Shown one piece after another: positions 1-48,134 of a DNA stretch of 62,311 bases. Below the pieces are notes generated by a model. The model saw nothing but the letters and a program-made list of their open reading frames with translations. It had not been told where the DNA came from and made no database searches. Location of the stretch: NCBI GenBank assembly GCA_934149325.1, contig CAKPEJ010000004.1:1-62311 (forward strand), given 5' to 3'. The translations under genes were made by a program, and so were the position numbers. The DNA comes from an uncultured Bacilli bacterium (GTDB lineage: Bacteria > Bacillota_I > Bacilli_A > RF39 > UBA660). Each line of letters opens with the position of its first letter. Within the stretch, counting starts at the first letter, position 1.

Positions 1-89
1 ATCCCTTTCTATTAATATAATATAGAAAAAATTAAAAAAATATGACAAAAAAGTGTCAAAAATGTTAAAAAATTAAAAAAGTTTCAAAA

Positions 90-128
90 TTTTAGGGGGT
101 TTTTAAGGAGAAATCGCGAATATAATAA
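90..128 (+). promoter_or_regulatory. Conserved 39-nt upstream element, copy 1 (upstream of dnaG)
   Basis: TTTTAGGGGGTTTTTAAGGAGAAATCGCGAATATAATAA. It shares 33/39 ungapped identity with 23856-23894 and ends 15 nt before the dnaG ATG. Confidence 0.5.
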
Positions 129-143
129 TTGGAGTGGTATTTT

Positions 144-1883
144 ATGAAAAAGATATCTTATGAAGAAATTCTTAGTATTCAAAGAAAAGTAAATATTGTT
201 GATGTCGTTAAAGATTATGTTCCATTAATTCAAAAGGGTAGGAATTATTTCGGAGTATGTCCTTTTCATGATGATCATAATCCTAGTATGAGTGTATCTA
301 ATGAAAAACAGATGTTTAAATGCTTTGTATGTGGCGCATCAGGTAATGTTTTTAATTTTGTATCAGATTACGAAAAAATTCCTTATTATCAGGCAGTGTC
401 TGTAGTAGCAAACAAAATAGGAATTAAACTTGATATATCAAGTGAATATGTAAAAAAGGAAAATTCAACATTATATGAAATATATGATATAAGTAGTAAA
501 TTTTATCAAAATAACTTAAATACAGCATCAGGTAAGATTGCAAAAAACTATCTTAAAAATAGAAGTATTAGTGAAGAAGTTATAAAACATTTTCAAATAG
601 GATTATCTCCTAGTGATAATAGTTTAACTAATTTACTTGAAAATAAAAAAATATCAAAAACAGATATTTTAAAATCAGGAATAGCAATAGAAAGAGAAAA
701 TAATGTAATTGATATTTATAGAAATAGAATAATGTTCCCTTTATGGAATTTAAATGGACAAGTAGTTGGATTTTCAGGAAGAATTTATGATAATTCAGAT
801 ACAAGTAAATATATAAATACAATGGAAACTGAAATATTTAAAAAAGGAAATTTACTTTATAATTTTCATAATGCAAAAGAGAATGCTAGAAATGAAAGAA
901 ATATAATTGTTGTAGAAGGCTTTATGGATGTTATTAGATTATATACAATTGGAATAGAGAATGTAGTTGCTACTATGGGTACTGCGATTACAAAAGAACA
1001 TGCTATGTTATTAAAAAGACTTTCAAGTAATATAATATTAATGTTTGATGGTGATTCTGCTGGTGAAAAAGCTACTAATTCAGCTATTGAAGAATTAAAA
1101 AATGAAGATGTTAATATAAAGGTAGTTAGATTAGAAGAAAATTTAGATCCTGATGAATACATATTAAATAAGGGAAAAGAAAAAATGATTGATCACTTAG
1201 CTCATGCAACACCATTATTTAATTATAAGATGAATGCATATAAAAAAGATTTAGATTTTAATGATCCTAATGATATATCAAAATACATTAATATGTTAAA
1301 AGTTGATTTAGAAAAAATTGATGATGATATTGTAAGAGAAATTGAGGTAAAAAAAATATCAGATTTAACTGGTGTAAGTGAGAAGAATATTTTGTCGAAA
1401 CTTGACATAAATAAGAAAGATGTTAAAATAATTGAGCGTCGTCAAGTTAAATCTAGTGATTTAAAATTAAGTAAATATGATAAAGCATCAAAGTATATTT
1501 TATTTTATATGATAAAAAATCCAAGTTTAATTAATTATTATTATAATAATTTATCATATCTACCAAATGAAGTTGATAGAAAACTTGCAAATGAAATGAT
1601 TCTTTTTTATAAGAAATTTGAAAGTTTTAATTTAAATGATTTTATTATATATCTAAAAGATAAAAAAGAACTTATTAATAAAGTTATAGAGATTGATGAT
1701 TTAGATTATAATAAAGAATATGATATGGATTTAATTGACAGCTATTTTAAAGTTATAAAAGAGTATTTAAATAATATAGAAATAGAAAAGCTAAAAAAAG
1801 AACTAAAAAATGCTGATAATGAAGTGGTAAGAAAAGAAATAGCAAAAAAAATAGTAGAGTTAAAAATAAAGGAGAGTAAGTAA
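144..1883 (+). CDS. dnaG: DNA primase DnaG
   Basis: CHC2 zinc finger [13 protein letters not shown]...[13 protein letters not shown] and Toprim motifs EGFMDV / DGDSAG. The ATG at 144 is preceded by GGAG (131-134); the ORF-track start at 129 is a TTG. Confidence 0.95.
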
Positions 1884-1884
1884 T

Positions 1885-2976
1885 ATGGAAGAAATAAAGA
1901 CATTAGATCAAAGAAAAAAAGATTTATTAAAAATGGGAAAAGAAGAAGGTTTCTTAACTTTTGAACAATTAGCAAATGTTTTAAAGGGTCTTGAAATGGA
2001 TGCTGAGAGTTTAGATGATTTATATAATTTCTTAAATGAAAATAATATAGAAGTTGTTGCTGATAGTGAGGTAGAATCAGATAGTGATGATGGTGATGAT
2101 GGAACAAACCTTTTACTTGAAGAAGATGCACTTCCTAAAAATTTAAGTATTAATGATCCTGTTAGAATGTATTTAAAAGAAATAGGTAAAATAAGTCTTC
2201 TTTCATTAGATGAAGAATTAGAATTATCAAAAAGAATAGAAGAAGGCGATGAAGAAGCAAAAGCTAAACTTGCAGAATCAAATTTACGTTTAGTTGTTTC
2301 TATTGCAAAGAGATATGTTGGAAGAAATTTAGGCTTCCTTGATTTAATTCAAGAAGGTAACATTGGTTTAATGAAGGCAGTTGATAAGTTTGATTCATCT
2401 AAAGGTTATAAATTTTCAACATATGCAACTTGGTGGATAAGACAAGCTATAACAAGAGCTATTGCCGATCAAGCAAAAACGATAAGAGTACCAGTTCATA
2501 TGGTTGAAACTATTAATAAGTTAAAAAGAGTTCAAAGACAATTAACTCTTGAATTAAATCGTGAACCAACAGAAGAAGAATTAAGTAAAAAACTTGGTAT
2601 ACCAGAAGATAAAGTTAGAGAAATAATCAAAATATCTTTAGATCCACTTTCATTAGAAACACCAATAGGTGAAGAAGAAGATTCTCATTTAGGAGATTTT
2701 GTAAAAGATGAAAGTAGCATGAGTCCAGAAGAATATGCTATTAACGAAGTGTTAAAAGATGAAATAGCAGAAGTATTACTTACATTAACTGAAAGAGAAG
2801 AACAAGTATTAAAATTAAGATTTGGTCTTGAAGATGGTACATGTCGTACTCTTGAAGAAGTAGGAACTATTTTTGGAGTTACAAGAGAGAGAATTAGACA
2901 AATAGAAGCAAAAGCACTTCGTAAACTTCGTCATCCATCAAGAAGTAAAAAGTTAAAGGATTATTTGGTTGATTAA
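1885..2976 (+). CDS. rpoD: Primary RNA polymerase sigma factor (sigma-70/SigA)
   Basis: Region 2 ([17 protein letters not shown]), region 3 and region 4 ([28 protein letters not shown]) are present, with an acidic region 1. It lies directly after dnaG, as in the macromolecular synthesis operon. Confidence 0.95.
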
Positions 2977-2977
2977 T

Positions 2978-3655
2978 ATGAGATTATCAAGTAGGTTAAA
3001 AGCAATCGCAGAATTTGTATCTGATGGTGAAAAAATCATTGATATAGGATGTGATCATGCACTTTTAGATATATATTTATATCAAAATAGAAAAAAAGTA
3101 AAAATAATTGCTTCTGATATTCATGAAGGAGCATTAAAACAAGCAGAAAAAAACATTAAAAAATATGAGCTTGAAAAGAAAATAAAACTTCGTCTTGGGG
3201 ATGGACTTGATGTAGTAAAAAATGGTGAAGTAAATACAGTTATTATTTCTGGTATGGGATATTCAACTATTATTGGAATTCTTTCTAATAAAGAAAAATT
3301 AGAAGGAGTTGAAAAAATAATAGTTCAATCAAATACTGATGTTGTAAAATTAAGAAAGAATGTAATTAAATTAGGATTTAAAATTAACAGAGAAAAACTA
3401 GTAAAAGATAAAGATATAATTTATACAGTAATTGAATTTGTAAGAGGTAAAGAAAAATATTCTTATGAAGAAATTTATTTTGGACCATGTATAATGAAAG
3501 AAAAAAATAAATTGTTTTATGAGTATTATAATAAAAAATTACTTAAATATGAAAATTTATTACTTCAATTACCAAATTATGAATTAGCTAGTAAAATACA
3601 TCATTTAAGATTAATAAAAGTAATAAAAAAAGAAGTTATAAAGGAAGATGAATAA
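2978..3655 (+). CDS. trmK: tRNA (adenine22-N1)-methyltransferase TrmK-like, SAM-dependent
   Basis: N-terminus MRLSSRLKAIAEFV and IIDIGCDHALLDIYL resemble the YqfN/TrmK family. Its position after sigA matches Bacillus. The ATG at 2978 follows the rpoD stop. Confidence 0.75.
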   Translation: MRLSSRLKAIAEFVSDGEKIIDIGCDHALLDIYLYQNRKKVKIIASDIHEGALKQAEKNIKKYELEKKIKLRLGDGLDVVKNGEVNTVIISGMGYSTIIGILSNKEKLEGVEKIIVQSNTDVVKLRKNVIKLGFKINREKLVKDKDIIYTVIEFVRGKEKYSYEEIYFGPCIMKEKNKLFYEYYNKKLLKYENLLLQLPNYELASKIHHLRLIKVIKKEVIKEDE

Positions 3656-7017: not shown

Positions 7018-7908
7018 ATGGAAAAAGAAATAAATAAGTTTATAGATTATTTAAAGTATCAAAAAAATTATTCTATATATACATGTAATAATTATAAGAA
7101 AGATTTAAAGGAGTATAATAATTTTATAGTAAGTCATAAACTTGATTATAAAAATTTATCATATGAAGATGCTACTAAATATTTAAAATTTTTAAATGAA
7201 GAAAAGAATGCTAAGTCATCTATATCAAGAAAATTAAGTTCTATAAGATCTTTTTATAAGTTTTTAGTATTAAATAATATTACTGATAAAAATATATTTT
7301 TAATTGTTTCATCACCAAAAAAAGATAAAAAAATACCTAAATTTATTAATTATTCAGATATTAATGAAATTTTTAATGTTCCAAATATTAATACACCATC
7401 AGGTCAAAGAGAAAGACTTATACTTGAAATATTATATGGATCTGGTGTAAGGGTATCAGAACTTGTTAATATAAAATTAAAAGATATTAATTTAAATAAT
7501 AAAAGTATTTTAATATATGGTAAAGGTAGCAAAGAAAGAATTGTGTCGTTTGGCGATTATGCTTATGAAATGATTTTAAAATATATTAATGAAGGAAGAG
7601 TTAATTTACTTGGAAATATAAAAAGTGATTATTTAATTGTTGGAAAAAATAAAGAAAATTTAACAACAAGAAGAATTGAACAAATTATTGATAAAATAAT
7701 AGAAAAAACAAGTATAAAACTAAATATTACACCACATGTTTTTAGGCATACATTCGCAACACATTTATTAGATAATGGATGTGATTTACTTGCCGTTCAG
7801 GAATTATTAGGTCATGCATCACTTTCGTCAACTGAAATATATACACACGTAAGTAATGAACATTTAAGAGAAGTTTATAGAAAATGTCATCCGAGAAATT
7901 TAAAGTAA
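7018..7908 (+). CDS. Tyrosine recombinase, XerC/XerD type
   Basis: N-terminal SAM-like domain plus catalytic ILYGSGVRVSEL (R) ... HVFRHTFATHLL (H-x-x-R) ... LLGHASLSSTEIYTHV (H, Y). ATG at 7018. Confidence 0.85.
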   Translation: MEKEINKFIDYLKYQKNYSIYTCNNYKKDLKEYNNFIVSHKLDYKNLSYEDATKYLKFLNEEKNAKSSISRKLSSIRSFYKFLVLNNITDKNIFLIVSSPKKDKKIPKFINYSDINEIFNVPNINTPSGQRERLILEILYGSGVRVSELVNIKLKDINLNNKSILIYGKGSKERIVSFGDYAYEMILKYINEGRVNLLGNIKSDYLIVGKNKENLTTRRIEQIIDKIIEKTSIKLNITPHVFRHTFATHLLDNGCDLLAVQELLGHASLSSTEIYTHVSNEHLREVYRKCHPRNLK

Positions 7909-8940: not shown

Positions 8941-8975
8941 ATGCGACGTAATTTCAAAAAGAGGGGGTTTTTTAT

Positions 8976-14358: not shown

Positions 14359-14467
14359 AATTTTGGCTTTGAAAAAACACAAATATTGATTTACAAACCA
14401 AGTGCCTATATTAGGGTGGGGAGTAAAAAAGAGATATTTGGAAGAAAAACAAAAGGAGGAGAAGAAA

Positions 14468-15427
14468 ATGGCAGTAGTTTCAATGAGCTATTTATTAGAA
14501 GCTGGTGTTCACTTTGGTCATCAGACTAAAAGATGGAACCCAAAAATGAAGGAATATATTTTTACTTCAAGAGATGATATTTATATCATAGATTTACAAA
14601 AAACAGTTAAAAAAATTGAAGAAGCATATGCAGCTTTAAAAGAAATCGCAGAAAATGGTGGTAAAGTTATTTTTGTTGGTACAAAAAAACAAGCACAAGA
14701 AGCTTCAGTAGAAGAAGCAACAAGATCAGAAAGTTTCTATGTAACTGAAAGATGGTTAGGTGGAACATTAACTAATTTTAGAACAATAAAAAGAAGAATT
14801 AATCGTTTAGAACAAATCGAAAAAATGGAAGCAAATGGTACATTTGATGTATTACCTAAAAAAGAAGTAATTAAAATCAAAAAAGAATATGATAAATTAA
14901 ATGCTAATTTATGTGGTATAAGAAATATGAAAAAATTACCAGATGCTATGATTATTGTTGATCCTAAAAAGGAATATAATGCAATTAGAGAAGCACATAA
15001 ACTTGGTATACCAGTATTTGGTATTATTGATACAAACTGTGATCCAGATTTAGTTGATTATGTAATTCCTGGTAATGATGATGCAGTTAGAGCTGTTAAA
15101 GTTATTTTAGGAGTACTTGCAAATGCAATAAATGAAGCGCAAGGTAGAGAATTAGTAGATTTTGTTACTGAAGAAGATAAAGTAAAAACTGTTAAAAAAG
15201 AATCTAAAAAAGAAGAAGAAAAGAAAGAAACTAAAGAAGTAAAAGAAGAAAAAGTTAAAAAAGAAGAACCTAAAAAGTCTGAAACTGTTTCAAATGTCAA
15301 AGCCGATGATAAAGAAGATTTATCAAAGAAAACAGTTGTTGAACTTAAAGAAATGGCTAAACAAAAGTCAATTGAAGGTTATAGTAAAATGAAAAAAAGT
15401 GAGCTTTTAGAAGCTTTAAATAAATAA
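14468..15427 (+). CDS. rpsB: 30S ribosomal protein S2 with a K/E-rich linker and a Rho_N/HeH-like C-terminal extension
   Basis: [27 protein letters not shown] is the canonical S2 N-terminus, and the ATG at 14468 follows AAAGGAGGAG. The tail ...[35 protein letters not shown] is additional. Confidence 0.95.
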
Positions 15428-19526: not shown

Positions 19527-19658
19527 TAAAAAGTATTTTAAGTAAATATAAATACTTAAATTAAAAAGTTAAAAAAGTTCAAAATGAAATAAAAAAAATA
19601 AACATTTTGGGCACTTTTTTTATTTTAATGCATACATTAAAGTAGAGGAGTGATGAAA

Positions 19659-20189
19659 ATGTCTATGTATAAAGAGATAGTAACCAAGGCAGTAGTTGGT
19701 AAAGGTAAAAAATATTTTAAAAATAAGTATTCTGTAAATACTGAGGTAACACCTAGTACTATATTAGGATGTTGGATAATTAATCATAAGTTTAATGGTT
19801 ATGAAAGAAATGATAACGTTATTGTTGATGGATCATTTGATATAAATATTTGGTATTCAACTGATAATGATACAAAAACAAATGTAATTAATGAAACAAT
19901 AAAATATAGTGAAGAAATAGCTGTTAAATCTAAATTAGATATTGATTTTAATGATACAGAAATAATTGTAAGAGCACTAAAACAACCTAGTTGTGGTAAT
20001 GCTACTATAGATGGAAATACAATAAATTTTGAAATTGAAAAGGAACTTGGTATTGAAGTTGTTGGAGATACAAAAGTAAAAATAATGGTAGAAGAAGATG
20101 AAGATAAATGGGAAGTTTTTGATGATGTTGTAACTAAAGATGTAGAAAAAGAAATAGATGAAAGTGTAAATGAAGACTTTTTAGAGTAG
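19659..20189 (+). CDS. cotE: Spore coat morphogenetic protein CotE homologue
   Basis: YKEIVTKAVVGKGKKY...STILGCWIINHKF...DINIWYS..NDTKT.V..ETIKY...ALKQPSC...EKELGIEVVGDTKV plus an acidic tail is collinear with B. subtilis CotE. CATACATT lies 20 nt upstream. Confidence 0.8.
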   Translation: MSMYKEIVTKAVVGKGKKYFKNKYSVNTEVTPSTILGCWIINHKFNGYERNDNVIVDGSFDINIWYSTDNDTKTNVINETIKYSEEIAVKSKLDIDFNDTEIIVRALKQPSCGNATIDGNTINFEIEKELGIEVVGDTKVKIMVEEDEDKWEVFDDVVTKDVEKEIDESVNEDFLE

Positions 20190-20961: not shown

Positions 20962-21807
20962 ATGAAATTTAAGAAAGTATTAAATTATTTTATATGGATA
21001 CCATTTGCAGTATCAACAGGTGCATTTGTATTATATTTTAGATATTTGTTTGAAATTAATTTATTTGCAAATACACCAGTAACATCACAAGTTAATGCAA
21101 TTATGGATAGATATTTAAGAATAGGGTTATTTTCTTTATTTGTAGCGTTATTAATACTTTTAGTAAATAAAATATCTAAATTAATATTTAATGATGAAAA
21201 AATTTATTATGAAGAAAATCATCCATGGACTAAAAAAGAAGAAGATGAAAAGGAAGCAGATACAAAAGAAAGTGTTTCTATAGAAGAAAAGAATGATAAA
21301 GATGATTATATTATAAGAGAAGACATACCTGTTAATGACAAAATAAAAGAAGATATTAATAGTAATAAAATATTAAAAGCTAGATTTATTGATAAAAATG
21401 ATGAAAAAATGATAGAAATCTTAACTGATGAAGATGAAGAAATAGAAGTTTTATCACTTGATAATGTTGTTGTTATGCCAGAAGTAAAAAAACAAACTGT
21501 AATTAAAGTTGATAGTTCTAAAGTAAAGATATCTGGATTTAAAAAATGTCCAAAATGTGGTAATTTTATAGTAGATGAGGCTGTAATTTGTGTACATTGT
21601 GGAATATTATTAGATGAATCATTAAAAGGAAAAGTAGATGGTACTAAAAGAATTAAAAAGAAGAAATTTAACCCAGTAATATTTATTGTTAATTTCTTAA
21701 TTATAATTTTATCATTATTTTTAATATTCTTAGTATCAAATAAAATTATTAATCAAAAGACTGAAAATTATAAAAACATAAATGTAGTTGAGCAAAAAAT
21801 AAAATAG
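20962..21807 (+). CDS. Membrane protein with a cytoplasmic zinc ribbon
   Basis: N-terminal TM helices, CPKCGNFIVDEAVICVHCG, and a C-terminal TM. Confidence 0.6.
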   Translation: MKFKKVLNYFIWIPFAVSTGAFVLYFRYLFEINLFANTPVTSQVNAIMDRYLRIGLFSLFVALLILLVNKISKLIFNDEKIYYEENHPWTKKEEDEKEADTKESVSIEEKNDKDDYIIREDIPVNDKIKEDINSNKILKARFIDKNDEKMIEILTDEDEEIEVLSLDNVVVMPEVKKQTVIKVDSSKVKISGFKKCPKCGNFIVDEAVICVHCGILLDESLKGKVDGTKRIKKKKFNPVIFIVNFLIIILSLFLIFLVSNKIINQKTENYKNINVVEQKIK

Positions 21808-21829
21808 GATTTTTAAAAATCCTATTTTT
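21801..21829. terminator. Bidirectional terminator between convergent genes
   Basis: Perfect palindrome AAAATAGGATTTTT / AAAAATCCTATTTT. Confidence 0.7.
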
Positions 21830-22646
21830 CACTTTTTTTAGTTGTTTTTTTAGTAGTTGTTTTCTTTGATTCAGTTTTTTTCTTTTGAGTACTTTTTTTA
21901 GTAGTAGTTTTTTTTGAACTGTTTTTCTTATTAGTTGCTTTTTTCTTTTCATCAACTTTTCTAATTAATATAAGAGGAGTAAGTTCTTTACCTTGTCCGG
22001 ATGGATTATCTTTTATTAATTCTTTTAATTCTTCAGGTGATAATTTTATATCACTAGAATAACCTAATATTTCTTGTCCTAAGTCATTTGCGTCAATTAT
22101 CATACATGATATTCCAAGTTTTTCTTTTATCTCGTTACAAACACCTTCTGGATTTTCAGGAAGTCTTATTCCAATATCACCATATTCATTCCATACATGA
22201 TCATAAAATCCATCAAGTCCGCTAACATCTTGTCCAACTATTTTATAAAATACACCTTTTTTTCCAAATAATTTTGTAATGGCGCTAGCTATACTTGCCC
22301 ATAATACTTTTAAAAGGCCAACAGTATCAATTGCGTATTGCATTTTTATTGTTTCTCCAACACCAACACCAGTAGATGGATGAGATGCGAATTTTGATAA
22401 AAATTTTGCCCAGAATCCAATCTTTATGTCTTTTCTTTCAACAACTCTGTTTTGACATAATGCAATTATTTTTTCACTACTTGAAACAATGTCTCCTTCT
22501 TCATAAATAGGTGAAACATATTCTTTGAATAAATCAATATATGATTCTCCTCTTTTTACAAATCTAGTTTTAATTGCGTGTCTTTTATAAGTAATTCCAT
22601 TTACCTTTATTTCAACCTTTTTTCCTTCATTCATACTAAACTTCAT
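21822..22646 (-). CDS. CofE-like (F420-0:gamma-glutamyl ligase family) protein with a K/T-rich basic tail
   Basis: EEGDIVSSSEKIIALCQNRVV and the overall pattern resemble the CofE fold family. The last 50 aa or so are KKKATNKKNSSKKTTTKKSTQKKKTESKKTTTKKTTKKSEK. The ATG at 22646 follows GGAGGT. Confidence 0.5.
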   Translation of the reverse strand: MKFSMNEGKKVEIKVNGITYKRHAIKTRFVKRGESYIDLFKEYVSPIYEEGDIVSSSEKIIALCQNRVVERKDIKIGFWAKFLSKFASHPSTGVGVGETIKMQYAIDTVGLLKVLWASIASAITKLFGKKGVFYKIVGQDVSGLDGFYDHVWNEYGDIGIRLPENPEGVCNEIKEKLGISCMIIDANDLGQEILGYSSDIKLSPEELKELIKDNPSGQGKELTPLILIRKVDEKKKATNKKNSSKKTTTKKSTQKKKTESKKTTTKKTTKKSEK

Positions 22647-22791
22647 ATTTACCTCCAAAATAATAATCATATTATTATAATTACCACATAAATACATTAT
22701 ACAACAAAAAATATAAAATTTTAAGATTTTTTTCCCAAATGTGGACATAAATAAAATAAAATGTTATATTTATTTTAGGGTGATGATATAC

Positions 22792-23820
22792 ATGAAATAT
22801 TCAACAAAAAGAATGTTAAAAAAAGTTAAAGGTTTAAATTATAAAAAAATGGATGTAATTGTAGATATTATTCATAAAAATACAGGAAAATCTAAATTTT
22901 ATATAAAATTAGATATGATAATGAATTTCTTATCAAGAGGAATAGGGTATACAGATTATTTTAGAGGTGATTATATAAATCTTACAAAAAAAGAAAAAGA
23001 TACATTTGTAGGTGCAAAGTCATTTTATAAAGTAATTCATTATTTAAATAATTATGATTATGTATCTATATTTCATGATAAATTAATTTTTAATAAATAC
23101 TTTAAAGAATATATAAAAAGAGATTTTATTAATTTAAAAATATGTTCTTATGATGAATTTAAAAAATTTATGGAAAGTCATAAAGTGGTATTTGCCAAAG
23201 ATCCAGTTGGTGAATGTGGGCATGGAATAAGTAAAATTGAAACAAAAAAAATAAAAAATTTTAAAGTTACTTATAATGATTTAATAAAAAATAAACAGTA
23301 TTTAGTAGAAGATGAAATTGTTCAAAGCGATGAATTAAATGAAATAAATCCTAATGTTGTTAATTCATATAGAATAGTTACTCTTGTAAAGGATGGAAAG
23401 TCATATGTTATAAATAATGCATTAAGAGTTAATCAAGATGATGCGAGTGTTATTGGATGTACAAATGACATATATTTTAGTTTTAATGAAGAAGGAATTA
23501 TTGATAGTAATGTAATAGATGATTATGGAAATGTATATGATAAACATCCACTTACAGGTAAAAAGTTTAGTGAAGTAAAAGTTAAAGATGTAAAAGAAGC
23601 TTTTGAAATGTGTAAAAAAGCAGCTTTAGAAGTTCAAGAAGTAAGATATGTTGGATGGGATGTAGCGTTTTCTAAAAATGGTCCTGTAATAGTGGAAGGT
23701 AATGAATATCCAGGATACGGTATATTTCAATTTTATAAATTAAAAAATAAAAGAACAGGTCATTTAAAAGATATAGAAGATGTTATAGGACAAGAAGAAA
23801 TAAAAAATATGAAATTATAG
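22792..23820 (+). CDS. ATP-grasp family protein (sugar-transfer-associated ATP-grasp-like)
   Basis: FAKDPVGECGHGI, SYRIVTLV and YVGWDVAFSKNGPVIVEGNEYPGY resemble ATP-grasp ligase motifs. The likely start is the ATG at 22792. Confidence 0.5.
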   Translation: MKYSTKRMLKKVKGLNYKKMDVIVDIIHKNTGKSKFYIKLDMIMNFLSRGIGYTDYFRGDYINLTKKEKDTFVGAKSFYKVIHYLNNYDYVSIFHDKLIFNKYFKEYIKRDFINLKICSYDEFKKFMESHKVVFAKDPVGECGHGISKIETKKIKNFKVTYNDLIKNKQYLVEDEIVQSDELNEINPNVVNSYRIVTLVKDGKSYVINNALRVNQDDASVIGCTNDIYFSFNEEGIIDSNVIDDYGNVYDKHPLTGKKFSEVKVKDVKEAFEMCKKAALEVQEVRYVGWDVAFSKNGPVIVEGNEYPGYGIFQFYKLKNKRTGHLKDIEDVIGQEEIKNMKL

Positions 23821-23855: not shown

Positions 23856-23894
23856 TTTTAGGGGGTTTTAGGGTATAAATCGCGTATATAATAA
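23856..23894 (+). promoter_or_regulatory. Conserved 39-nt upstream element, copy 2 (upstream of comEA)
   Basis: TTTTAGGGGGTTTTAGGGTATAAATCGCGTATATAATAA. It ends 16 nt before the comEA ATG. Confidence 0.5.
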
Positions 23895-23910
23895 GTGAAG
23901 GAGGATTTTT

Positions 23911-24615
23911 ATGAAAAATAAAATAAAAGAAAATTATAAAAAAATAATTGTAGTAGTTGTAATGTTATTATTTATATTATCATTATTTTTTATTAATTTT
24001 TATAACAACAAACAAAAAGAAAAAGTTAAGGTAAAATCTAAAACTGTGGTAAAAGAAACTATAGAAAAGAAAAATAAAGAAGTAAAAGAAGAAAAAATTA
24101 ATTACTATTACGTAGATATAAAAGGTGCTGTTAAAAATCCTGGTGTCTATAAGATAGAGGAAGGTAAAAGAATAATTGATGCTATTAATGCTTCAGGTGG
24201 TCTTACAGAAAAATCTGATACGAGTATAATTAATTTAAGTAAAAAGTTGCATGATGAAATGTTAATAATTGTTTATACATTTGATGAAATAAAAGAATAT
24301 AAAAATAAAAATTTAGAGATGGAAGAAATAAACAAAAAGATGAGTGAAAAATTGGTATGTCCTGATAAGAGTAATGATTCATGTATAAATAATAACAGTA
24401 AAAATAATGAAGTTTCTAGTAATTCAAAAGTATCAATAAATACAGCTACACTAGATGAATTAATGTCTATAAGTGGAATTGGAGAAAGTAAGGCTAAAGA
24501 AATAATCAAATATAGAGAAGAAAATGGTAACTTTGAAACTATAGATGAAGTAACAAATGTTTCAGGAATAGGTGATGCTCTATTTGAAAAAATTAAAGAT
24601 AGTATTACAGTATAA
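23911..24615 (+). CDS. comEA: Competence protein ComEA (DNA receptor)
   Basis: N-terminal TM, an SLBB-like segment (YVDIKGAVKNPGVYK) and C-terminal tandem helix-hairpin-helix (INTATLDELMSISGIGESKAKEII...VSGIGDALFEKI). Confidence 0.85.
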   Translation: MKNKIKENYKKIIVVVVMLLFILSLFFINFYNNKQKEKVKVKSKTVVKETIEKKNKEVKEEKINYYYVDIKGAVKNPGVYKIEEGKRIIDAINASGGLTEKSDTSIINLSKKLHDEMLIIVYTFDEIKEYKNKNLEMEEINKKMSEKLVCPDKSNDSCINNNSKNNEVSSNSKVSINTATLDELMSISGIGESKAKEIIKYREENGNFETIDEVTNVSGIGDALFEKIKDSITV

Positions 24616-26635
24616 TTATATCTATTATTTAATACTATTTTTTTCGTTATTGTATGTATTTTTGTATATAAGTTTTATAAAACCAAATTCAATATATTTA
24701 GTTAATACAAATAAAGTTACAGGATATATAATTGATAAGAAAATTAATGATGAAAAAATTTCTTTAGTAATAAAGGCAAAAGAAAAAATATTAGTTAATT
24801 ATTATTTTAAAAAAAATGAGAAAATTAATGATTTAAAATATGGAGATTATGTAACTGTCTATGGGACTTCTATTACATTAAAAAATAATACTAATTTTAA
24901 TATGTTTAATTACAAAAAGTACTTATATAGTAAAAAGATATTTTACATAATGGAATGTAATAAAATAGTAAAGATTAAAAATAATACAAATATTATATAC
25001 ATTATAAAAAATAATATTATTTCTAGAATAAATAAATGTATAAAAACAAAAGATTATATAAATGCTTTTGTATTAGGAAATAAAAATGATATAGATTATA
25101 ACAATATTAAAAATTATCAAAATTTAGGAGTAAGTCATTTATTTGCTATTTCAGGAATGCATGTTTCCATTCTTACAGTTTTTTTTCTTATAATATTAAA
25201 AAAGTCAAAATTGAAGAATTTTATGATAAATATATTTTTAATATTATATTTATTTTTAACAGGTTTCACACCATCTATTATAAGATCTAGTCTTTTATTT
25301 ATACTTTGTTCATTTAATGAAAAAATAAATATAAAAAAAGTAAATATCTTGATTTTAATTTTTTCTATATTGTTATTTATAAATCCATTTTATATATATG
25401 ATTTAGCTTTCAAATTTACTTTTATAATAAGTTTTTTCTTAATATTATTTAGTAATTTAATTAATGATAACAAAAAATATATAAATAAATTAATTATTGT
25501 TTCTATAATATCTTTTTTTGCATCATTACCAATAGTTATAAATAATTTTTATCAAGTGAATATTTTGAGTATTTTATTTAACTTAATATATGTTCCTTAT
25601 ATATCAATTATTGTATTTCCATTAGGATTACTAACATTTTTATTTCCATCACTTGATTCAGTGTATTTTTTGTTTATTAATATTTTAGAGTCTTTAACAG
25701 AAATTCTATCAAATATTAATTTAGTTTTATACTTTTCTAAAATACCAATTATTTTTATTATTATTTACTATTACTTATTATATAATTTATTAAAATTTAA
25801 GACTAAAAAGAAAATTTTTATTTTTATATTGTTACTAATTATATTTTATAATTTTAATAGTTATAAATTAAATCCAGAAGTATATTTTATTGATGTTGGA
25901 CAAGGTGATTCTATTCTTTTAAGAATTCATAATAAGAATGTACTTATAGATACAGGTGGTAAATATAGTTTTAATAATAAAAACAATTATGTTATATCAA
26001 ATAATATTTTATTACCACTTTTTAAATCATTAGGTGTAAAAAAAATAAATTATATTATAACATCACATGGTGATTTTGATCATATGGGAGATACCATCAA
26101 TGTTGTTAATAATATAAAGATAGAAAATGTTATATTTAATTGTGGTTCATATAATGATTTAGAAAATGAACTTATTAAAATATTAGATAAAAAGAAAATA
26201 AAATATTATTCATGTATTAAGGAATTAAATATAGATGAGTATAAACTAGAGTTTTTAAATACAAAAGAATATGATAATGAAAATGATAATTCAAATGTTA
26301 TATATATAAAACTAAACAATTATAAATTTTTATTTATGGGAGATGCTGGAGTAGATAAAGAAAAAGATATTTTAGATAAGTATAATTTAGAAAATATTGA
26401 TGTATTGAAAGTAGGACATCATGGTTCTAAAACAAGTAGTAGTAAAGAATTTATTAACGAAATAAAATCTAAATATTCAGTAATTAGTGTTGGAAAGAAT
26501 AATCGTTATGGTCATCCAAATAAAGAAGTGTTAAATAATTTAGATAATTCTAAGATATATAGAACAGATCAAGATGGGAGTATTATGTTTAAAATTGAGA
26601 ATAATAGATTAAAAATAAAAACATGTAGTCCGTAG
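24575..26635 (+). CDS. comEC: DNA internalisation channel ComEC/Rec2 with a metallo-beta-lactamase domain
   Basis: Competence domain GVSHLFAISGMHVSIL, many TM helices, and an MBL domain VYFIDVGQGDSILL...HGDFDHMG...GHHGS. The exact start is uncertain because the 5' end overlaps comEA. Confidence 0.85.
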   Translation: MLYLKKLKIVLQYNYIYYLILFFSLLYVFLYISFIKPNSIYLVNTNKVTGYIIDKKINDEKISLVIKAKEKILVNYYFKKNEKINDLKYGDYVTVYGTSITLKNNTNFNMFNYKKYLYSKKIFYIMECNKIVKIKNNTNIIYIIKNNIISRINKCIKTKDYINAFVLGNKNDIDYNNIKNYQNLGVSHLFAISGMHVSILTVFFLIILKKSKLKNFMINIFLILYLFLTGFTPSIIRSSLLFILCSFNEKINIKKVNILILIFSILLFINPFYIYDLAFKFTFIISFFLILFSNLINDNKKYINKLIIVSIISFFASLPIVINNFYQVNILSILFNLIYVPYISIIVFPLGLLTFLFPSLDSVYFLFINILESLTEILSNINLVLYFSKIPIIFIIIYYYLLYNLLKFKTKKKIFIFILLLIIFYNFNSYKLNPEVYFIDVGQGDSILLRIHNKNVLIDTGGKYSFNNKNNYVISNNILLPLFKSLGVKKINYIITSHGDFDHMGDTINVVNNIKIENVIFNCGSYNDLENELIKILDKKKIKYYSCIKELNIDEYKLEFLNTKEYDNENDNSNVIYIKLNNYKFLFMGDAGVDKEKDILDKYNLENIDVLKVGHHGSKTSSSKEFINEIKSKYSVISVGKNNRYGHPNKEVLNNLDNSKIYRTDQDGSIMFKIENNRLKIKTCSP

Positions 26636-26647
26636 AGAGGAGTAGAT

Positions 26648-27538
26648 ATGAATTATTATAATGAAATAAAAAATAAAATAATAGATAATGAAGTATATTC
26701 GAAAGTAAGAGATTATTCAAAAGAAAGACATAGGGTTATTACGTATTTTGAAATTGGAAAGTTATTAGATGAAGCAGGTAGTAAATATGGAGATAATATC
26801 TTAAATGATTATTCAAATAGATTGGTTGTTGAGTTTGGAAAAAAATATAATGAAAGAACATTAAGACGTATTAGACAATATTATAGAATGTTTAAAGATG
26901 AAAAATGGTCGCCACTGGCGACCAAATTATCTTGGAGTCATTATTCTGAATTATTATCTATTAAAGATGAAAATGAATTGTTATATTATGTTAACATTAC
27001 TTTTGAAAGAAATTTATCAAAAAGAGAATTAAGGGAAAAAATTAAAAATAAAGAATATGAAAGATTACCCATTGAAACTAAAAATAAGCTAATACTTAAT
27101 AATGAGATTGAAATAAAAGATTTAGTACCTAATCCTATATTAATTAGGAATAAGAACAATATAGAAATAGCTACTGAAAAAGCATTACATAATTTGATTT
27201 TAGAAGATATTGAATCATTTATGAAAGAACTTGGTAATTCATTTAGTTTCATAGGTGGTGAATATAAGCTTAAGATAGGTGATAGAAATCATTATATTGA
27301 TTTGTTGTTATTTAATATAAAATATAACTGTTATGTAGTTGTTGAATTGAAGGTAACTGAATTTAAAGTAGAATATATATCACAAGTTCAAAAATATATG
27401 AATTATATAGACAAGAACGTAAAAGAAATAAGTAACAATAATACCATTGGAATATTAATTTGTAAAAAGGAGAATAAATTTGTTATAGAATATTGTTCAG
27501 ATGAAAGAATTGCTGTTAGAGAATATGTATTAGCGTGA
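26648..27538 (+). CDS. DUF1016/YhcG-family PD-(D/E)xK nuclease-like protein
   Basis: N-terminal YhcG-like helical region and a C-terminal IDLLLFNIKYNCYVVVELK nuclease-type motif. Confidence 0.65.
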   Translation: MNYYNEIKNKIIDNEVYSKVRDYSKERHRVITYFEIGKLLDEAGSKYGDNILNDYSNRLVVEFGKKYNERTLRRIRQYYRMFKDEKWSPLATKLSWSHYSELLSIKDENELLYYVNITFERNLSKRELREKIKNKEYERLPIETKNKLILNNEIEIKDLVPNPILIRNKNNIEIATEKALHNLILEDIESFMKELGNSFSFIGGEYKLKIGDRNHYIDLLLFNIKYNCYVVVELKVTEFKVEYISQVQKYMNYIDKNVKEISNNNTIGILICKKENKFVIEYCSDERIAVREYVLA

Positions 27539-27572
27539 TATAACGGGTATGAATATAGAGGAGAATGATAAA

Positions 27573-28400
27573 ATGAACGAAATAAAAGAATATACGGAAA
27601 AATTATTTGAAGATATAAAACATATAGATGAAAATAAAAATGAATATTGGTTGGCACGTGAACTTATGCCATTGTTAGAATATAGTAAATGGGAAAGATT
27701 TTCTAATGCAATAGATAATGCTAAAATATCTTGTGAAAAAAGTGGATATAAAGTTATTGAACATTTTCCCGAGGTTGGGAAGTTGTCAAAAAGAAATAAT
27801 GGTGCCAACGTTAAAATAAAAGATTATAAATTGTCAAGATATGCTTGTTATTTAATAGTACAAAATTGTGATTCAAGAAAGAAAGCTGTAGCTCTTGGAC
27901 AAACGTATTTTGCAGTTCAAACAAGAAAACAAGAACTAAGTGAAAAGGAATACAGTGAACTTACAGAAGATGAAAAAAGATTTTATCAAAGAAATTTAAC
28001 AAAAAAGGGTAATCATTCTTTGAATGTTGCAGCTAAAAATGCAGGAGTAAAAAATTTTGATAGGTTTCATAATAGTGGGTATAAAGGTTTATATAATGGT
28101 GAAACTGCTAATGATATTGCCAAAAGAAAGAAACTTAGATATAGGGAAGATATTTTAGATAATATGGGAAGTGATGAATTAATTGCCAATTTATTTAGAA
28201 TTTCTCAAACAGAACAAAAACTTAAAAATGAAAATATTAAAATAGAAAGATCAGCAAATGAGACTCATTATGCTGTTGGTAAAGAAATTAGAAAAACAAT
28301 TAAGAAATTAGGTGGAACGATGCCAGAGGATTTGCCCACACCTTCTAAAAGTTTAAAAGAATTAGAAAAAGAAAATATAAAAATACAAATAGAAGAGTAA
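27573..28400 (+). CDS. dinD: DNA damage-inducible protein D (DinD) homologue
   Basis: IKHIDENKNEYWLARELMPLLEYSKWERF...LSRYACYLIVQNCDSRK...YFAVQTRKQEL is collinear with E. coli DinD. Confidence 0.7.
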   Translation: MNEIKEYTEKLFEDIKHIDENKNEYWLARELMPLLEYSKWERFSNAIDNAKISCEKSGYKVIEHFPEVGKLSKRNNGANVKIKDYKLSRYACYLIVQNCDSRKKAVALGQTYFAVQTRKQELSEKEYSELTEDEKRFYQRNLTKKGNHSLNVAAKNAGVKNFDRFHNSGYKGLYNGETANDIAKRKKLRYREDILDNMGSDELIANLFRISQTEQKLKNENIKIERSANETHYAVGKEIRKTIKKLGGTMPEDLPTPSKSLKELEKENIKIQIEE

Positions 28401-44378: not shown

Positions 44379-45530
44379 TTAACTACCAAAATCTACCATT
44401 GTAGCATCAGTACAAGTTAGTTTATTTATGGTATTTACAGCATCATAAAGTTTATCTTTGAACATATGAGTATAAGTATCTAAAGTTTCTTCGATTGAAG
44501 CATGACCTAAGAAATCAGATACAACTGCTATATTAGTATTATTATTAATTAATAGTGATGCACAACTATGCCTAAAGTCGTGTAATCTTATTCTTTTAAT
44601 ATTAGCTTTTTTAGCAATTTCAATATTCTTATGCCTCATTTGATAGAATGTTATAGGAAGATAATTTCCAAATATAAACCATTCATCGTTAAATTCAGCA
44701 AATTGCTTTTGCTCATCATATAGCTTTTTTAAATCATTAAATAATACATTAGCAATAGGTAATATCCTATTACTTTTTTTAGTTCTTGGCTGTGTTAATT
44801 CATAATTTGTACAAGTTTCAGATCCATGTGTAACAGCTTGTTTTGTAATAGATACTGATTTATTATTCCAATTAATATCTTTCCATTGTAAGCCTCTAGC
44901 TTCACCTCTACGAAGTCCTAGATAATATAAAGTTTCATACATACATTTAATTTGTAAGTTAGGGGATTCTGATATAAATTGATTAAATTCTTCTAAAGTA
45001 TAGAAATCCATTTCTTTCTTTAAATCAGATGCTGTAGTAAAACTTTCCATTCTGCTATAAAATTTACTCATATTGAAACCATAAGTCTTAGTTGCCCAAT
45101 TAATTACAATCTTTAAGAATTTTTGAATTTCATTTTTATAACTATTTGAACAATCTACTTTCATCATTTCAGCTCTCCATCTTTGATAATGAGTAGCATC
45201 CATATCTTTTAATTTAACTTTATCAAACATTCCAATATATTTAATTCTATCTCGATAAGTCTTTAAAGTTGACCATCTTACTATATTTTTTTGAACTTCG
45301 TAATATTTTGTGTACAAATCTTTGAAGGTCATATTCATATCTCCTTCAAATACTTCAGCCATTTTTAAATATTCTTTTTCAGCACGTTTTGCTTCTGCCT
45401 CAGTTTTATATGCTTTGGAAAACTTTTTGTGTTTTTTACTATCTAAACCTGTTTCCCAAATATACCATATATATTTACGACCATCTTTAGTCCATTTGCT
45501 TTCTTCTAATAGTCTAACTGCAATTTTCAT
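44379..45530 (-). CDS. int: Site-specific tyrosine integrase
   Basis: LGLRRGEARGL (R), RLHDFRHSCASLL (H-x-x-R), FLGHASIEETLDTYTHMF (H, Y). Confidence 0.92.
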   Translation of the reverse strand: MKIAVRLLEESKWTKDGRKYIWYIWETGLDSKKHKKFSKAYKTEAEAKRAEKEYLKMAEVFEGDMNMTFKDLYTKYYEVQKNIVRWSTLKTYRDRIKYIGMFDKVKLKDMDATHYQRWRAEMMKVDCSNSYKNEIQKFLKIVINWATKTYGFNMSKFYSRMESFTTASDLKKEMDFYTLEEFNQFISESPNLQIKCMYETLYYLGLRRGEARGLQWKDINWNNKSVSITKQAVTHGSETCTNYELTQPRTKKSNRILPIANVLFNDLKKLYDEQKQFAEFNDEWFIFGNYLPITFYQMRHKNIEIAKKANIKRIRLHDFRHSCASLLINNNTNIAVVSDFLGHASIEETLDTYTHMFKDKLYDAVNTINKLTCTDATMVDFGS

Positions 45531-45618
45531 TCCTCCTTTGCTTAGATTAGACTATTCACGCACTTCAGTTGGTAGTTTACCATATTTAATTATTTTTTCC
45601 AACTGAAGTGCGATAGTT

Positions 45619-47031
45619 TTATCTTTCTATTTCAAAATCATCTTTATTTTTATGGTTTTTACTATAATAACCATAATTAATAGCATTAGCTATATTTTCA
45701 TATTCTTCTAATTTATCTTTAGATTTATCTCTACCTAAAACTTTATCTAGTGCTTTACATATCTTTTTAAGTAGAGATTTCCATTTATCAACTTCAGTTT
45801 CTAATTTAGTTTTTAAACTCTCGATATTATTACTTAGTATATTAACTAAATCATTTAATCTACCAATTTCTTGTTTTTGTTCCTTAATTATTTTATTTTT
45901 CTTTAATAATTCATTGTTATTTTTAAAAGTTTTGTTTTCTTCAGTAAGTTTAGCAATTTCCATATCTTTATTAGCGTTATCAGTACTTAAGATGATTATT
46001 TTGTGTTGTAATCCTTTTGTGTATTTAATTATCTTAAAAACATCATCATCTTTATAACCACCAAGTTTTCTTTTAGTAGAATTTAATACATTACTATAAT
46101 CACTATTATATTCGAGATTTTTAAGCCCATTTTTAGAGTTTTCAATAATCTTTAAGGTATTCTCCTTTTCTTTATTTAATTCTTCTAATTCGGCTTTTTT
46201 CTCGGCAATATCATAATCTAGTTTTGATTGATTTTCTTTATTAGAACCAACATCTCCACGATAGAGATTAAATCCTTTTTCAGTAATAAACTTATTAAAG
46301 TCATTTTGCATTTGATGAAAAGATAATTTACCACCTTTATCTTTCCAAAATTGATCACAGTTTAAAAATTTACCATTTACTTCTTCATAAACAATTTTAC
46401 CTTTATCATCACGAAGTAATTTAGGTACAATAGAGGTAGTTCCATCTTTCTTTTTTATTTCTTCTTTAACAACATTACCATTTTCATCTTTTACAAAACA
46501 TTTTCTTTTAACTTTAGTAACTACGGGAACAAAATAAGCTTGTAGGTGAGGAGTATCTTCATCATAGTGAATTTGTGATAATAAGATATTTTCTTCACCA
46601 ACATATTCTTTTAAAAACTCCATACAAGAGTCAAAAAAGTAACTTACAGCTTTTGTTATATCTCCTTTAGATTTAATATCAGGAATCATTACTGCTTGTC
46701 CTTTTTTATCTCCTGTATGATAAGTTCTACCACTATCTTTAAATTTCATTCCAAGTGATTGAAAGAATTCAGGACCACTTGTGAATGTTACACCATTTAA
46801 AAGGTTAGTGTTAGGTCTATTTTGATATTCAATATTTCTTACTTTTAAATTATTCTTAACTTCTTGATATAAATTATTTTGAGTAAGAGATACATATTCA
46901 ACATTAAATATAGTTCTATCTTTATCATAATTACCTGTACCTTTTCTATCAGTCATTTCTACACCAATATTATAAAGGTCATCTTTTTTATATTGAGTTT
47001 CAACTCGTACTACTTGTTTTCCATCATACAA
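45619..47031 (-). CDS. MobV-family (Mob/Pre) relaxase
   Basis: IHYDEDTPHLQAYFVPV matches the HxDExxPH motif of Mob_Pre relaxases. The C-terminus is a long coiled coil. Confidence 0.7.
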   Translation of the reverse strand: MYDGKQVVRVETQYKKDDLYNIGVEMTDRKGTGNYDKDRTIFNVEYVSLTQNNLYQEVKNNLKVRNIEYQNRPNTNLLNGVTFTSGPEFFQSLGMKFKDSGRTYHTGDKKGQAVMIPDIKSKGDITKAVSYFFDSCMEFLKEYVGEENILLSQIHYDEDTPHLQAYFVPVVTKVKRKCFVKDENGNVVKEEIKKKDGTTSIVPKLLRDDKGKIVYEEVNGKFLNCDQFWKDKGGKLSFHQMQNDFNKFITEKGFNLYRGDVGSNKENQSKLDYDIAEKKAELEELNKEKENTLKIIENSKNGLKNLEYNSDYSNVLNSTKRKLGGYKDDDVFKIIKYTKGLQHKIIILSTDNANKDMEIAKLTEENKTFKNNNELLKKNKIIKEQKQEIGRLNDLVNILSNNIESLKTKLETEVDKWKSLLKKICKALDKVLGRDKSKDKLEEYENIANAINYGYYSKNHKNKDDFEIER

Positions 47032-47059
47032 TATTTAATTCTCCTTTCTTTGTTTTTAG

Positions 47060-47140
47060 TATTAGAGGTCATTTATGACCTATCTCACTAGGGCATAGCC
47101 CAATCGTGAGTTTAAGGATTTCACCCTTAAAAATCCCAAA
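47060..47140. other. Candidate oriT (cluster of inverted repeats upstream of mob)
   Basis: AGGTCAT-TT-ATGACCT (47066-47081); CTCAC..GGGC-ATA-GCCC..GTGAG (47084-47110), followed by TTTAAGG; GGATTT/AAATCC (47115-47136). Confidence 0.3.
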
Positions 47141-47177
47141 TAATCACTATCGCCAAGTTCTTATTTATAGAAGATGA

Positions 47178-48134
47178 TTATTCATCATCTTCAAGTATAG
47201 GTTCTTCATATACACAATGATATTTTCTTTCATTACTAGTTCTAGACTTTGTTATATGAAGACCTTCTTTTTCTAATAAATCAATATTTAAATTTAATGA
47301 TCTTCCAAAACGTAGAGCAGTTGTTTTTAACTTAGCATCATGAATAATACTTGTAGAAGTAAATTCAAAATCTTTTTTATATGATGCATACTTAATAAAA
47401 AGAATTAAGTTTTCATCAATTTCATCATCTTCAATTGGATTACTTATTTTAAAAGTTTGATTTTTATTTCTTTTTAAATCTATATCAAAACCTTCAAAAT
47501 CTCTATTAATTACTTTCATAGTTAAATGATTATGGTCATTTCTATTCTCAAACAAAGTAATTTTACCATCTATACAAGCATCAAAAGCTGTACTACCTAA
47601 TGTTTCATTCCTTTTATTTAAGTGATGAGTAAATAGAATAGTGATATTGTATTTCTCACATAATTCTCTTAACTTAGGCATTAACTTTTGAGCTACATCT
47701 TGAAAATCATTAATATCATAAGAGATACCTAAATCCATATCTTTAAGCATATCTATTATTACAAATTTATTAGTAGTTTTATCACCAGCAAAATCAGCAA
47801 TTTCATATTCATGGTCAAATATACTTATAGTAGATTTTCCATCTCTATCCATGATAAATAATGAGCTTTCCTTTGGAGTTAATTGTAATGTTTTGTATCT
47901 GTCTTGTAATTGACCAAAATCAGACTCTGTGCTAATATATAATACAGGTGAAAGAGTTACTTTGTGTCCTAGAAATGGTAATCCATTTGTAAGGCAGTAG
48001 GAAAGTTGCAGTGCCAACATAGACTTTCCTACTTTAGGTTTTGATACAAGTAAATATACACCTTTAGACCTTATTAGTCCTTCGACAATGATGTCTTTTT
48101 TTTCACTTGTATCTATCTCTTCAATTAGTTTCAT
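47178..48134 (-). CDS. RecA-fold AAA ATPase (RepA/AAA_25-like replication or helicase-loader protein of mobile elements)
   Basis: Walker A SKPKVGKS and Walker B FVIIDMLKD. Confidence 0.65.
   Translation of the reverse strand: MKLIEEIDTSEKKDIIVEGLIRSKGVYLLVSKPKVGKSMLALQLSYCLTNGLPFLGHKVTLSPVLYISTESDFGQLQDRYKTLQLTPKESSLFIMDRDGKSTISIFDHEYEIADFAGDKTTNKFVIIDMLKDMDLGISYDINDFQDVAQKLMPKLRELCEKYNITILFTHHLNKRNETLGSTAFDACIDGKITLFENRNDHNHLTMKVINRDFEGFDIDLKRNKNQTFKISNPIEDDEIDENLILFIKYASYKKDFEFTSTSIIHDAKLKTTALRFGRSLNLNIDLLEKEGLHITKSRTSNERKYHCVYEEPILEDDE

Follow-up and report, generated by a model that had tools for sequence, protein, structure and literature searches.

Two operons in the 62,311-nucleotide (nt) stretch of DNA analysed here, which is referred to throughout as the window, are preceded by the same short sequence element. 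The window comes from an uncultured bacterium of the human gut that is assigned to the Bacilli and has a G+C content of about 23%. One copy of the element (positions 90–128, TTTTAGGGGGTTTTTAAGGAGAAATCGCGAATATAATAA) stands before the operon that begins with dnaG and rpoD, the genes for primase and for sigma-A, the primary sigma factor, and the other (23856–23894, TTTTAGGGGGTTTTAGGGTATAAATCGCGTATATAATAA) stands before the DNA-uptake genes comEA and comEC. Both copies are probably promoters that are read by an alternative sigma factor of the SigH type, as judged from their sequence. An initial annotation of this DNA had proposed that the two operons share a control element, either (a) a promoter that depends on an alternative sigma factor or an activator or (b) an element of the 5′ untranslated region. 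The sharing is supported, since the same box precedes both operons and does so in related genomes as well, and reading (a) is supported and can be narrowed to the SigH type by the half-sites and their spacing.

The coordinates and sequences given in the initial annotation were confirmed: the two copies match at 33 of 39 positions in an ungapped alignment and end 15 nt before the ATG of dnaG (144) and 16 nt before that of comEA (23911). The element is composed of two blocks with a spacer of fixed length and free sequence between them, and the functional unit can be written as TAGGGGGTTTT, a variable spacer, and CGCG(A/T)AT. In the putative dnaG-rpoD promoter, on the plus strand, the -35 half-site TAGGGGGTTTT occupies positions 93–103 (core AGGGGGTTT at 94–102), the spacer covers 104–114, and the -10 half-site lies at 115–126, where CGCGAAT (115–121) is followed by the A/T-rich extension ATAAT. 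In the putative comEA-comEC promoter, on the same strand, the -35 half-site TAGGGGGTTTT is found at 23859–23869 (core AGGGGGTTT at 23860–23868), and the -10 half-site at 23881–23892 consists of CGCGTAT (23881–23887) and ATAAT, with GTAT replacing GAAT. Shine-Dalgarno sequences follow on the plus strand at 131–137 (GGAGTGG, dnaG) and 23898–23904 (AAGGAGG, comEA). The spacer, counted from the end of the 9-nt consensus block to the start of the 7-nt one, has 12 nt in each copy of the window; all 17 compiled sites have 11 or 12 nt there, while the spacer sequence varies between the two copies, in the allele of locus L003, and among relatives. G(A/T)AT comes 23 nt after the G run begins (22 nt in some relatives), and the distance between its end and the start codon is 22 nt at dnaG and 19–23 nt in 14 of the 17 compiled sites. 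G(A/T)AT (118–121 at dnaG and 23884–23887 at comEA) begins 3 nt upstream of an embedded TATAAT (121–126 and 23887–23892); it is this tetranucleotide that is conserved as the -10, and not the TATAAT to which the initial annotation had drawn attention.

The SigH consensus used for Listeria is (A/G)(A/C)AGG(A/G)WWW-N11-12-(A/G)(A/G)(A/C)GAA(A/T), or RMAGGRWWW-N11-12-RRMGAAW (PMC4754846). Against it, the dnaG copy reads AGGGGGTTT-N12-CGCGAAT and agrees at 7 of 9 and 6 of 7 positions, whereas the comEA copy, AGGGGGTTT-N12-CGCGTAT, agrees at 7 of 9 and 5 of 7, having a T for the first A of GAA. Within the -35 block, the GG, R, and WWW positions of RMAGGRWWW are matched, and G replaces M and A at positions 2 and 3. 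The -35 block, a spacer of 11–12 nt, the -10 block, and targets that overlap experimentally defined regulons are all found together. The geometry between box and gene, 19–23 nt at most sites, also agrees with Listeria, whose SigH promoters are 22 nt away from comEA and 19 nt away from comG (PMC4754846). A promoter scan detected no plus-strand sigma-70-type promoter upstream of either operon, including the 143 nt before dnaG.

SigH serves the Bacillota as the sigma factor of the transition state and of competence. In the mechanism that we propose, RNA polymerase holoenzyme with a SigH-family sigma factor would recognize both copies, with AGGGGGTTT (the G run and the following T's) serving as the -35 and CGCG(A/T)AT, 12 bp downstream, as the -10. 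Transcription would begin about 8–10 nt after the -10, within the usual 7–10 nt, which at dnaG predicts a plus-strand start at about 128–131; the start would coincide with the Shine-Dalgarno sequence and leave a leader of about 13–16 nt. The short distance between TATAAT and ATG that had been noted initially would be explained in this way, because the -10 would be G(A/T)AT and the start would fall at the Shine-Dalgarno sequence. Once active, the sigma factor would co-induce the comEA-comEC-YhcG-DinD-like operon and the dnaG-rpoD macromolecular-synthesis operon. What we infer here includes the identity of the sigma protein that reads the box, the start site, and the inducing conditions.

The features by which the element was first recognized say little about its significance. 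CGCG does occur only in the two copies (positions 115 and 23881) when both strands of the 62 kilobases (kb) are scanned, as the initial annotation had found by eye, but its rarity is not telling: shuffled sequences contain 1.44 copies on average, and two or more copies appear in 41 of 100 shuffles. The G5 run, likewise regarded as rare, is not, with 8 GGGGG and 5 CCCCC positions in the window. CGCG and G5 were therefore rejected as defining features, given the non-significant count of CGCG, its variability in relatives, and the unrelated nature of the other copies of AGGGGGTTTT (G5T4), of which that at 8962 is a ribosome-binding site and that at 44272 on the minus strand is the tail of a hairpin. 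A near match, AAATCTCGAATATAAT, at 46105–46120 on the minus strand was set aside as well, as it lies within a coding region and lacks the -35 half. Among 1035 pairs of 100-nt upstream regions from the window, the dnaG/comEA pair has the highest 39-mer identity, at 33, but AT-rich upstream DNA alone reaches 30 of 39, which makes the raw identity a modest outlier. With a modest outlier on one side and a weak CGCG count on the other, the significance of the element must rest on comparative evidence.

Such evidence was obtained from relatives that were fetched via protein homology and not via the motif. Four loci represent dnaG (L012–L015; DnaG 61–78% identical), all from metagenome-assembled genomes (MAGs) labelled 'Bacilli bacterium', and four represent comEA-comEC (L165–L168; ComEC 55–59% identical), including one genome of the 'Clostridium sp. 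CAG:433' type. Conservation in relatives had been named beforehand as a test of the element, and the two-block box was found at the same place in all eight, before both operons. The dnaG sites read GGGGGTTTT..GACGAATA, GGGGATTTA..GCGTATA, and, twice, GGGGAATTT..GGAGAATA; the comEA sites read GTGGATTTT..GGTGAATA, GGGGAATTT..ATCGAATA, GGGGAATTT..AGCGAATA, and GGGGAATTT..AGAGAATA. Their -35 block follows GGGG(G/A)(T/A)TT, with the exception of GTGGATTT in L165, and their spacers differ. GAAT is kept across the four dnaG and four comEA relatives save for GTAT in L013, a variant that is shared by the window's comEA copy and by two further loci described below (L098 and L115). The -10 blocks of the comEA relatives are GGTGAAT, ATCGAAT, AGCGAAT, and AGAGAAT, and the CGC of the window is replaced in relatives by GAC, GGA, GGC, and others. 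In these alignments, conservation lies in GAAT and in the G run together with the T's behind it, and CGCG is a species-specific filling of the degenerate RRM positions. Of the two features stressed in the initial annotation, the G run accordingly stands, as the conserved -35 core, and CGCG does not.

The comEA protein of the window is also present on many gut metagenome contigs, and four of these loci (L003, L004, L006, and L010) have a giant dockerin protein upstream of comEA, replacing the ATP-grasp gene of the window. The left flank and the internal spacer of the box are unrelated there, yet TAGGGGGTTTT is kept and is followed by ATCGCGTATATAATAA. The giant protein (positions 1–2883 of these loci) has approximately 6000–6200 residues and carries cadherin-like, Big_2, glycine-rich ALK_LTK_GRD, and dockerin domains; in its place, the window has a zinc-ribbon protein, an F420-ligase-like gene, and the ATP-grasp gene (20962–23820).

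The relatives further allowed an independent test of the window sites. A weight matrix was trained solely on the eight sites of the relatives (four dnaG and four comEA), with the window copies excluded, and it scored the window sites at 30.7 and 28.3 bits, compared with 15.6 bits for the next independent site. In 40 simulated first-order Markov (Markov-1) windows, the maximum score averaged 13.7 (standard deviation 2.7) and never exceeded 24.0. Within the 62 kb, the box is confined to the dnaG and comEA operons.

Further copies upstream of genes, by which the initial annotation had proposed to check the element, were found in related genomes and in gut metagenomes. A genome scan with a degenerate pattern, using one genome per species, returned at least 113 loci; the matches listed are mostly chance matches in unrelated taxa, many of them in coding sequence, and those in Bacillus, Priestia, and Psychrobacillus were dismissed for the latter reason. 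At least 8 of the at least 113 matches precede dnaG operons. Six of these belong to low-GC MAGs related to the window organism, most of them named 'Bacilli bacterium' (L084, L095, L096, L124, L146, and L151). The other two are Clostridia MAGs with about 40% G+C (L105 and L109), in which the box stands before dgt-dnaG-rpoD and reads AGGGGAATTT...TGCGTATAAAAT and AGGGGGATTT...TACGTATATAAT, respectively; by their sequence, SigH-type control of the dnaG operon may extend across classes of the Bacillota. In other low-GC MAGs of this kind, the box precedes a gene for a C39-peptidase ATP-binding cassette (ABC) exporter (L064), one for a GH25 lysin that carries choline-binding-type repeats (L098), one for a MacB-like ABC transporter (L115), and one for an MvaI/BcnI-like endonuclease (L149). 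The exporter and lysin loci are from one MAG and have near-identical boxes.

A metagenome scan with a narrower pattern gave at least 122 matches in at least 120 loci, and a scan of viral contigs (36 matches) served as background only. About 116 of the metagenome matches stand before genes on gut contigs with roughly 21–37% GC, at least 111 of them on contigs below 30% G+C, and nearly all are placed immediately ahead of a ribosome-binding site and start codon; about 6 look like chance. The window's own species is not among the matches listed for either the genome or the metagenome scan. The genes behind these boxes include dnaG (at least 43 matches), a secreted M23 peptidase with Listeria-Bacteroides repeats (at least 32), and a YhcG/DUF1016 PDDEXK nuclease (at least about 26, often in tandem arrays), followed by ORF6N proteins (at least 5), MvaI/BcnI-like endonucleases and PDDEXK_2 proteins (at least 2 each), comEA (at least 1), a MacB-like ABC transporter (at least 1), and peptides with a double-glycine leader (at least 2; MTELSKNDMLNTYGG... 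and MIKLTNEEALKTYGG...). The latter are short open reading frames (ORFs) directly behind boxes in L221 (about 4–100) and L273, in which MTELSKNDMLNTYGG or MIKLTNEEALKTYGG is followed by 21–25 residues. Together with the boxes of the C39 exporter and the lysin, these ORFs suggest that bacteriocin- or pheromone-like peptides may belong to the regulon. The nuclease genes form tandem arrays of up to five YhcG/DUF1016 PDDEXK paralogues in CAG:433-like relatives (L203, 1176–4765; L206, L183, L188, L271, and L286), and several paralogues have a SigH-type box of their own; L271 and L286 each contain two such boxes.

Several points weigh against the assignment of these boxes to a SigH-type sigma factor. 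No SigH-like gene was found in the window or in 2.2 megabases of fetched loci, where a B. subtilis SigH probe matched RpoD region 2 only. In the -35 core, GGGG stands in place of the consensus (A/C)AGG, a departure that is consistent clade-wide, and the comEA copy has GTAT where GAAT is canonical. In addition, an mRNA with the predicted start would have its Shine-Dalgarno sequence right at the 5′ terminus. Sites from the pattern scans match by construction, and only their positions and downstream genes count as independent evidence. Finally, the usual sporulation targets of SigH (spo0A and spoIIA) and further late competence operons (comG, comF, and dprA) are all missing from the matches listed, although the patterns were narrow and this absence is therefore uninformative. 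In view of the GGGG core and the GTAT at comEA, the specificity of the sigma factor may be slightly shifted, or the protein may not be orthologous to B. subtilis SigH but a relative of the ComX-like kind. The AT-rich gut lineage carries sporulation genes: the window encodes the spore-coat morphogenetic protein CotE (19650–20189, plus strand), and relative L115 encodes a SigG-like sigma factor (7087–7872). SigH is conserved in endospore formers, and a sigH gene is therefore likely in this lineage.

Of the alternatives to a SigH-type promoter, the strongest is a housekeeping sigma-A promoter formed by the embedded TATAAT, where an activator on the G-rich block would stand in for the -35. The hexamer is perfect in both copies, growing cells must express rpoD and dnaG, and the 143 nt upstream of dnaG offer no other plus-strand sigma-70-like promoter. 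Nevertheless, such a promoter is unlikely. There is no TTGACA-like hexamer 16–18 nt upstream of TATAAT (GGTTTT stands at 17 nt) and no TGn extended -10, whereas the window's ordinary promoters are canonical and have leaders of about 30 nt. Transcription from TATAAT would start inside the Shine-Dalgarno sequence. At comEA in relatives, moreover, TATAAT is lost (GAATATATAT, GAATATTATA, and GAATATATCT) and GAAT is kept. The need for rpoD expression in growing cells could also be served from within the operon, by a strong sigma-70-like promoter inside dnaG (1402–1429, plus strand; TTGACA-16-TGtTAAAAT, 11/12) that lies about 455 nt before rpoD. Its two hexamers are kept in L289, L012, and L013 and not in L014 and L015, and it is plausibly a candidate internal housekeeping promoter for rpoD, as in other macromolecular-synthesis operons.

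It is more doubtful still that the element is the site of a DNA-binding regulator, ComK-like or Spo0A-like, and not a sigma-recognition element. TGACGAA in L012 and TCGCGAA in the window resemble the Spo0A 0A-box (TGNCGAA), but the CGAA core is missing in many relatives (e.g., GGAGAAT and AGAGAAT), and the Spo0A-box reading was rejected on this ground. An asymmetric two-part element with promoter-like spacing, about 20–23 nt from the start codon, further has the geometry of a promoter and not of an operator.

The initial annotation's reading (b) can be restated as an RNA element that is transcribed from a promoter further upstream and acts on translation or stability, and the location of the box immediately ahead of the ribosome-binding site in nearly all instances would suit it. 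This is very improbable, however, and reading (b) was abandoned. The window has no Rfam match at the gathering threshold, and the two copies fold no better than shuffled sequences, with minimum free energies of -5.5 and -5.6 kcal/mol (z -0.10 and -0.57). The two conserved blocks are not mutually complementary, the spacer is not conserved and changes without compensation, and no upstream plus-strand promoter was detected. The box at comEA also follows a weak hairpin and T run that is terminator-like by eye, where a terminator scan found none. As to a chance likeness between two AT-rich upstream regions, which the 30 of 39 reached by such DNA and the non-significant CGCG count might invite, it is excluded by the conservation data: the relatives-only matrix scores both window copies above the simulated maximum, the box is kept at both loci across relatives with 55–78% protein identity, and more than 100 additional instances stand directly before genes.

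The operon behind the first box (144–3655, plus strand) consists of dnaG (144–1883), rpoD (1885–2976), and a TrmK-like methyltransferase gene (2969–3655), which abut or overlap one another. The second (23911–28400, plus strand) consists of comEA (23911–24615), comEC (24575–26635), a YhcG/DUF1016 PDDEXK nuclease gene (26648–27538), and a DinD/Bro-N gene (27549–28400). The identities of dnaG, rpoD, comEA, and comEC were confirmed with NCBIfam. The gaps after comEC are 10–12 nt, and the YhcG nuclease gene, 12 nt behind comEC, therefore belongs to the comEA operon in the window.

The 149-nt intergenic region before dnaG holds a second promoter, of sigma-70-like sequence (TTGTCA-18-TATATT; 19–48, minus strand), which faces away from dnaG, is not part of the box, and accounts, reading from 48 to 19, for the rest of the region. 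It probably serves a divergent DUF6512 gene, as such a gene lies on the minus strand just upstream of dnaG in L289 (1812–2351), L012, L013, and L015. The TGACAAA/TGTCAAA repeats at 41–60, considered as possible regulator sites, are better explained as the -35 region of this DUF6512 promoter. Position 1 of the window directly follows a scaffold gap (a run of N) in contig L011.

Two further features lie elsewhere in the window. Just after recG, a block on the minus strand (44379–48134) encodes a tyrosine integrase, a Mob_Pre relaxase-like protein, and an AAA_25 ATPase, has inverted GC and AT skew, and looks like a small integrated mobilizable element. Ribosomal protein S2 (14402–15427, plus strand) has 341 residues and an unusual C-terminal extension with a Rho_N domain (residues 306–341).

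For an uncultured bacterium of the human gut, a probable SigH-type promoter before both operons offers regulatory logic, in that a SigH-family sigma factor apparently couples DNA uptake to the operon for primase and sigma-A. Close relatives apparently bring lysins, secreted peptides, and nucleases under its control as well. Tentatively, a programme of competence and fratricide like that of Streptococcus may stand under the box, comprising DNA uptake, M23 and GH25 hydrolases, double-glycine peptides and the C39 exporter for them, a MacB-like transporter, and nuclease arrays of the YhcG, other PDDEXK, or restriction type, although we hold this to be somewhat less than an even prospect. If it were true, the lineage would be naturally transformable and the primase/sigma operon would be boosted in that state. 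Competence for transformation, as predicted here, would bear on gene flow in the gut. For future searches of MAGs, the signature to use is GGGGRWTT, with 22–23 nt to GAAT, about 20 nt before a start codon.

For promoter biology, on the other hand, little is new. The pairing of dnaG-rpoD and comE operons under SigH is already known from RNA sequencing in Listeria monocytogenes (PMC4754846), so that the finding is less novel than the initial annotation supposed, and parts of it are established in B. subtilis and S. aureus. Defined by RNA sequencing, the regulon of SigH in Listeria comprises LMRG_00908-dnaG-rpoD, comEA-comEB-comEC, comG, coiA, and the peptidoglycan hydrolase gene lytG, as well as the LMRG_01010-LMRG_01005 operon, which holds msrA and msrB (PMC4754846). 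Shared with the boxes described here are the half-site consensus, the 11–12 nt spacer, the dnaG-rpoD and comE operons as targets, and the closeness of promoter and gene; the hydrolase lytG likewise has counterparts in the M23 and GH25 murein hydrolases behind the box in relatives. The Listeria comEA promoter reads AAAGGATTT (AAAGGGTTT in lineage III) with GGCGAAT, and CGCGAAT, the -10 block of the window's dnaG copy, is found in L. seeligeri (PMC4754846). There are also differences. The -35 core is AAGGA in Listeria and GGGG(G/A) here. In Listeria, a yqxD-like gene leads the dnaG operon and the promoter lies 151 nt from the first gene, whereas here dnaG comes first and the box is 22 nt away. 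Similarly, comEB is present in Listeria and absent here, where the YhcG nuclease and DinD-like genes follow comEC instead. The organism here, finally, is an uncultured bacterium from the gut, with about 23% GC and with sporulation genes.

Of the seven promoters that serve yqxD-dnaG-sigA in B. subtilis, two are SigH promoters (PMC2824700, citing Qi and Doi, 1990; Liao et al., 1999). There, too, a SigH promoter feeds the operon of primase and primary sigma factor in a spore former. Upstream of the B. subtilis operon, sigma-A promoters are also found. The window differs in that the 149-nt intergenic region has no recognizable plus-strand promoter besides the SigH-type box, and its sigma-A-like promoter is internal to dnaG. 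The regulon suggested by the boxes, nucleases especially, goes beyond descriptions of SigH in Listeria or Bacillus. In S. aureus, the operons comE and comG are driven by SigH (PMC3486894; PMC9300618), and a SigH-family sigma factor thus turns on DNA-uptake operons there as well, a likeness in the operons controlled; S. aureus additionally uses ComK1 and ComK2.

Fratricins and bacteriocin-type functions are included in ComX regulons, and the content gathered behind the box here (DNA uptake, lysins, secreted peptides with an exporter, and nucleases) resembles, by analogy, the competence and fratricide regulons of organisms with ComX or SigH. As a sigma factor, ComX is related to SigH (PMC9300618), and the likeness to the streptococcal cin-box that was pointed out in the initial annotation holds at this family level. 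The cin-box of ComX (SigX), TACGAATA or TTNCGAATAA, is a single -10 element (PMC9300618). Both systems have a -10 box that contains CGAATA, a SigH-related sigma factor (a proposed one in the window's case), and a place before late competence genes that include comEA-comEC, and the dnaG copy of the window, TCGCGAATAT, comes close to the cin-box. Strict membership was rejected, however. In every compiled site, a conserved -35 half (GGGGRWTT) stands at a fixed distance from the -10, and CGAATA loses its CG in relatives (GGAGAATA, AGAGAATA, and GGTGAATA), nor is the core intact in the window's comEA copy, which has CGTATA. In its two-part architecture, the box is therefore set apart from the ComX cin-box and shares the half-site consensus and spacing of the SigH promoters of Listeria.

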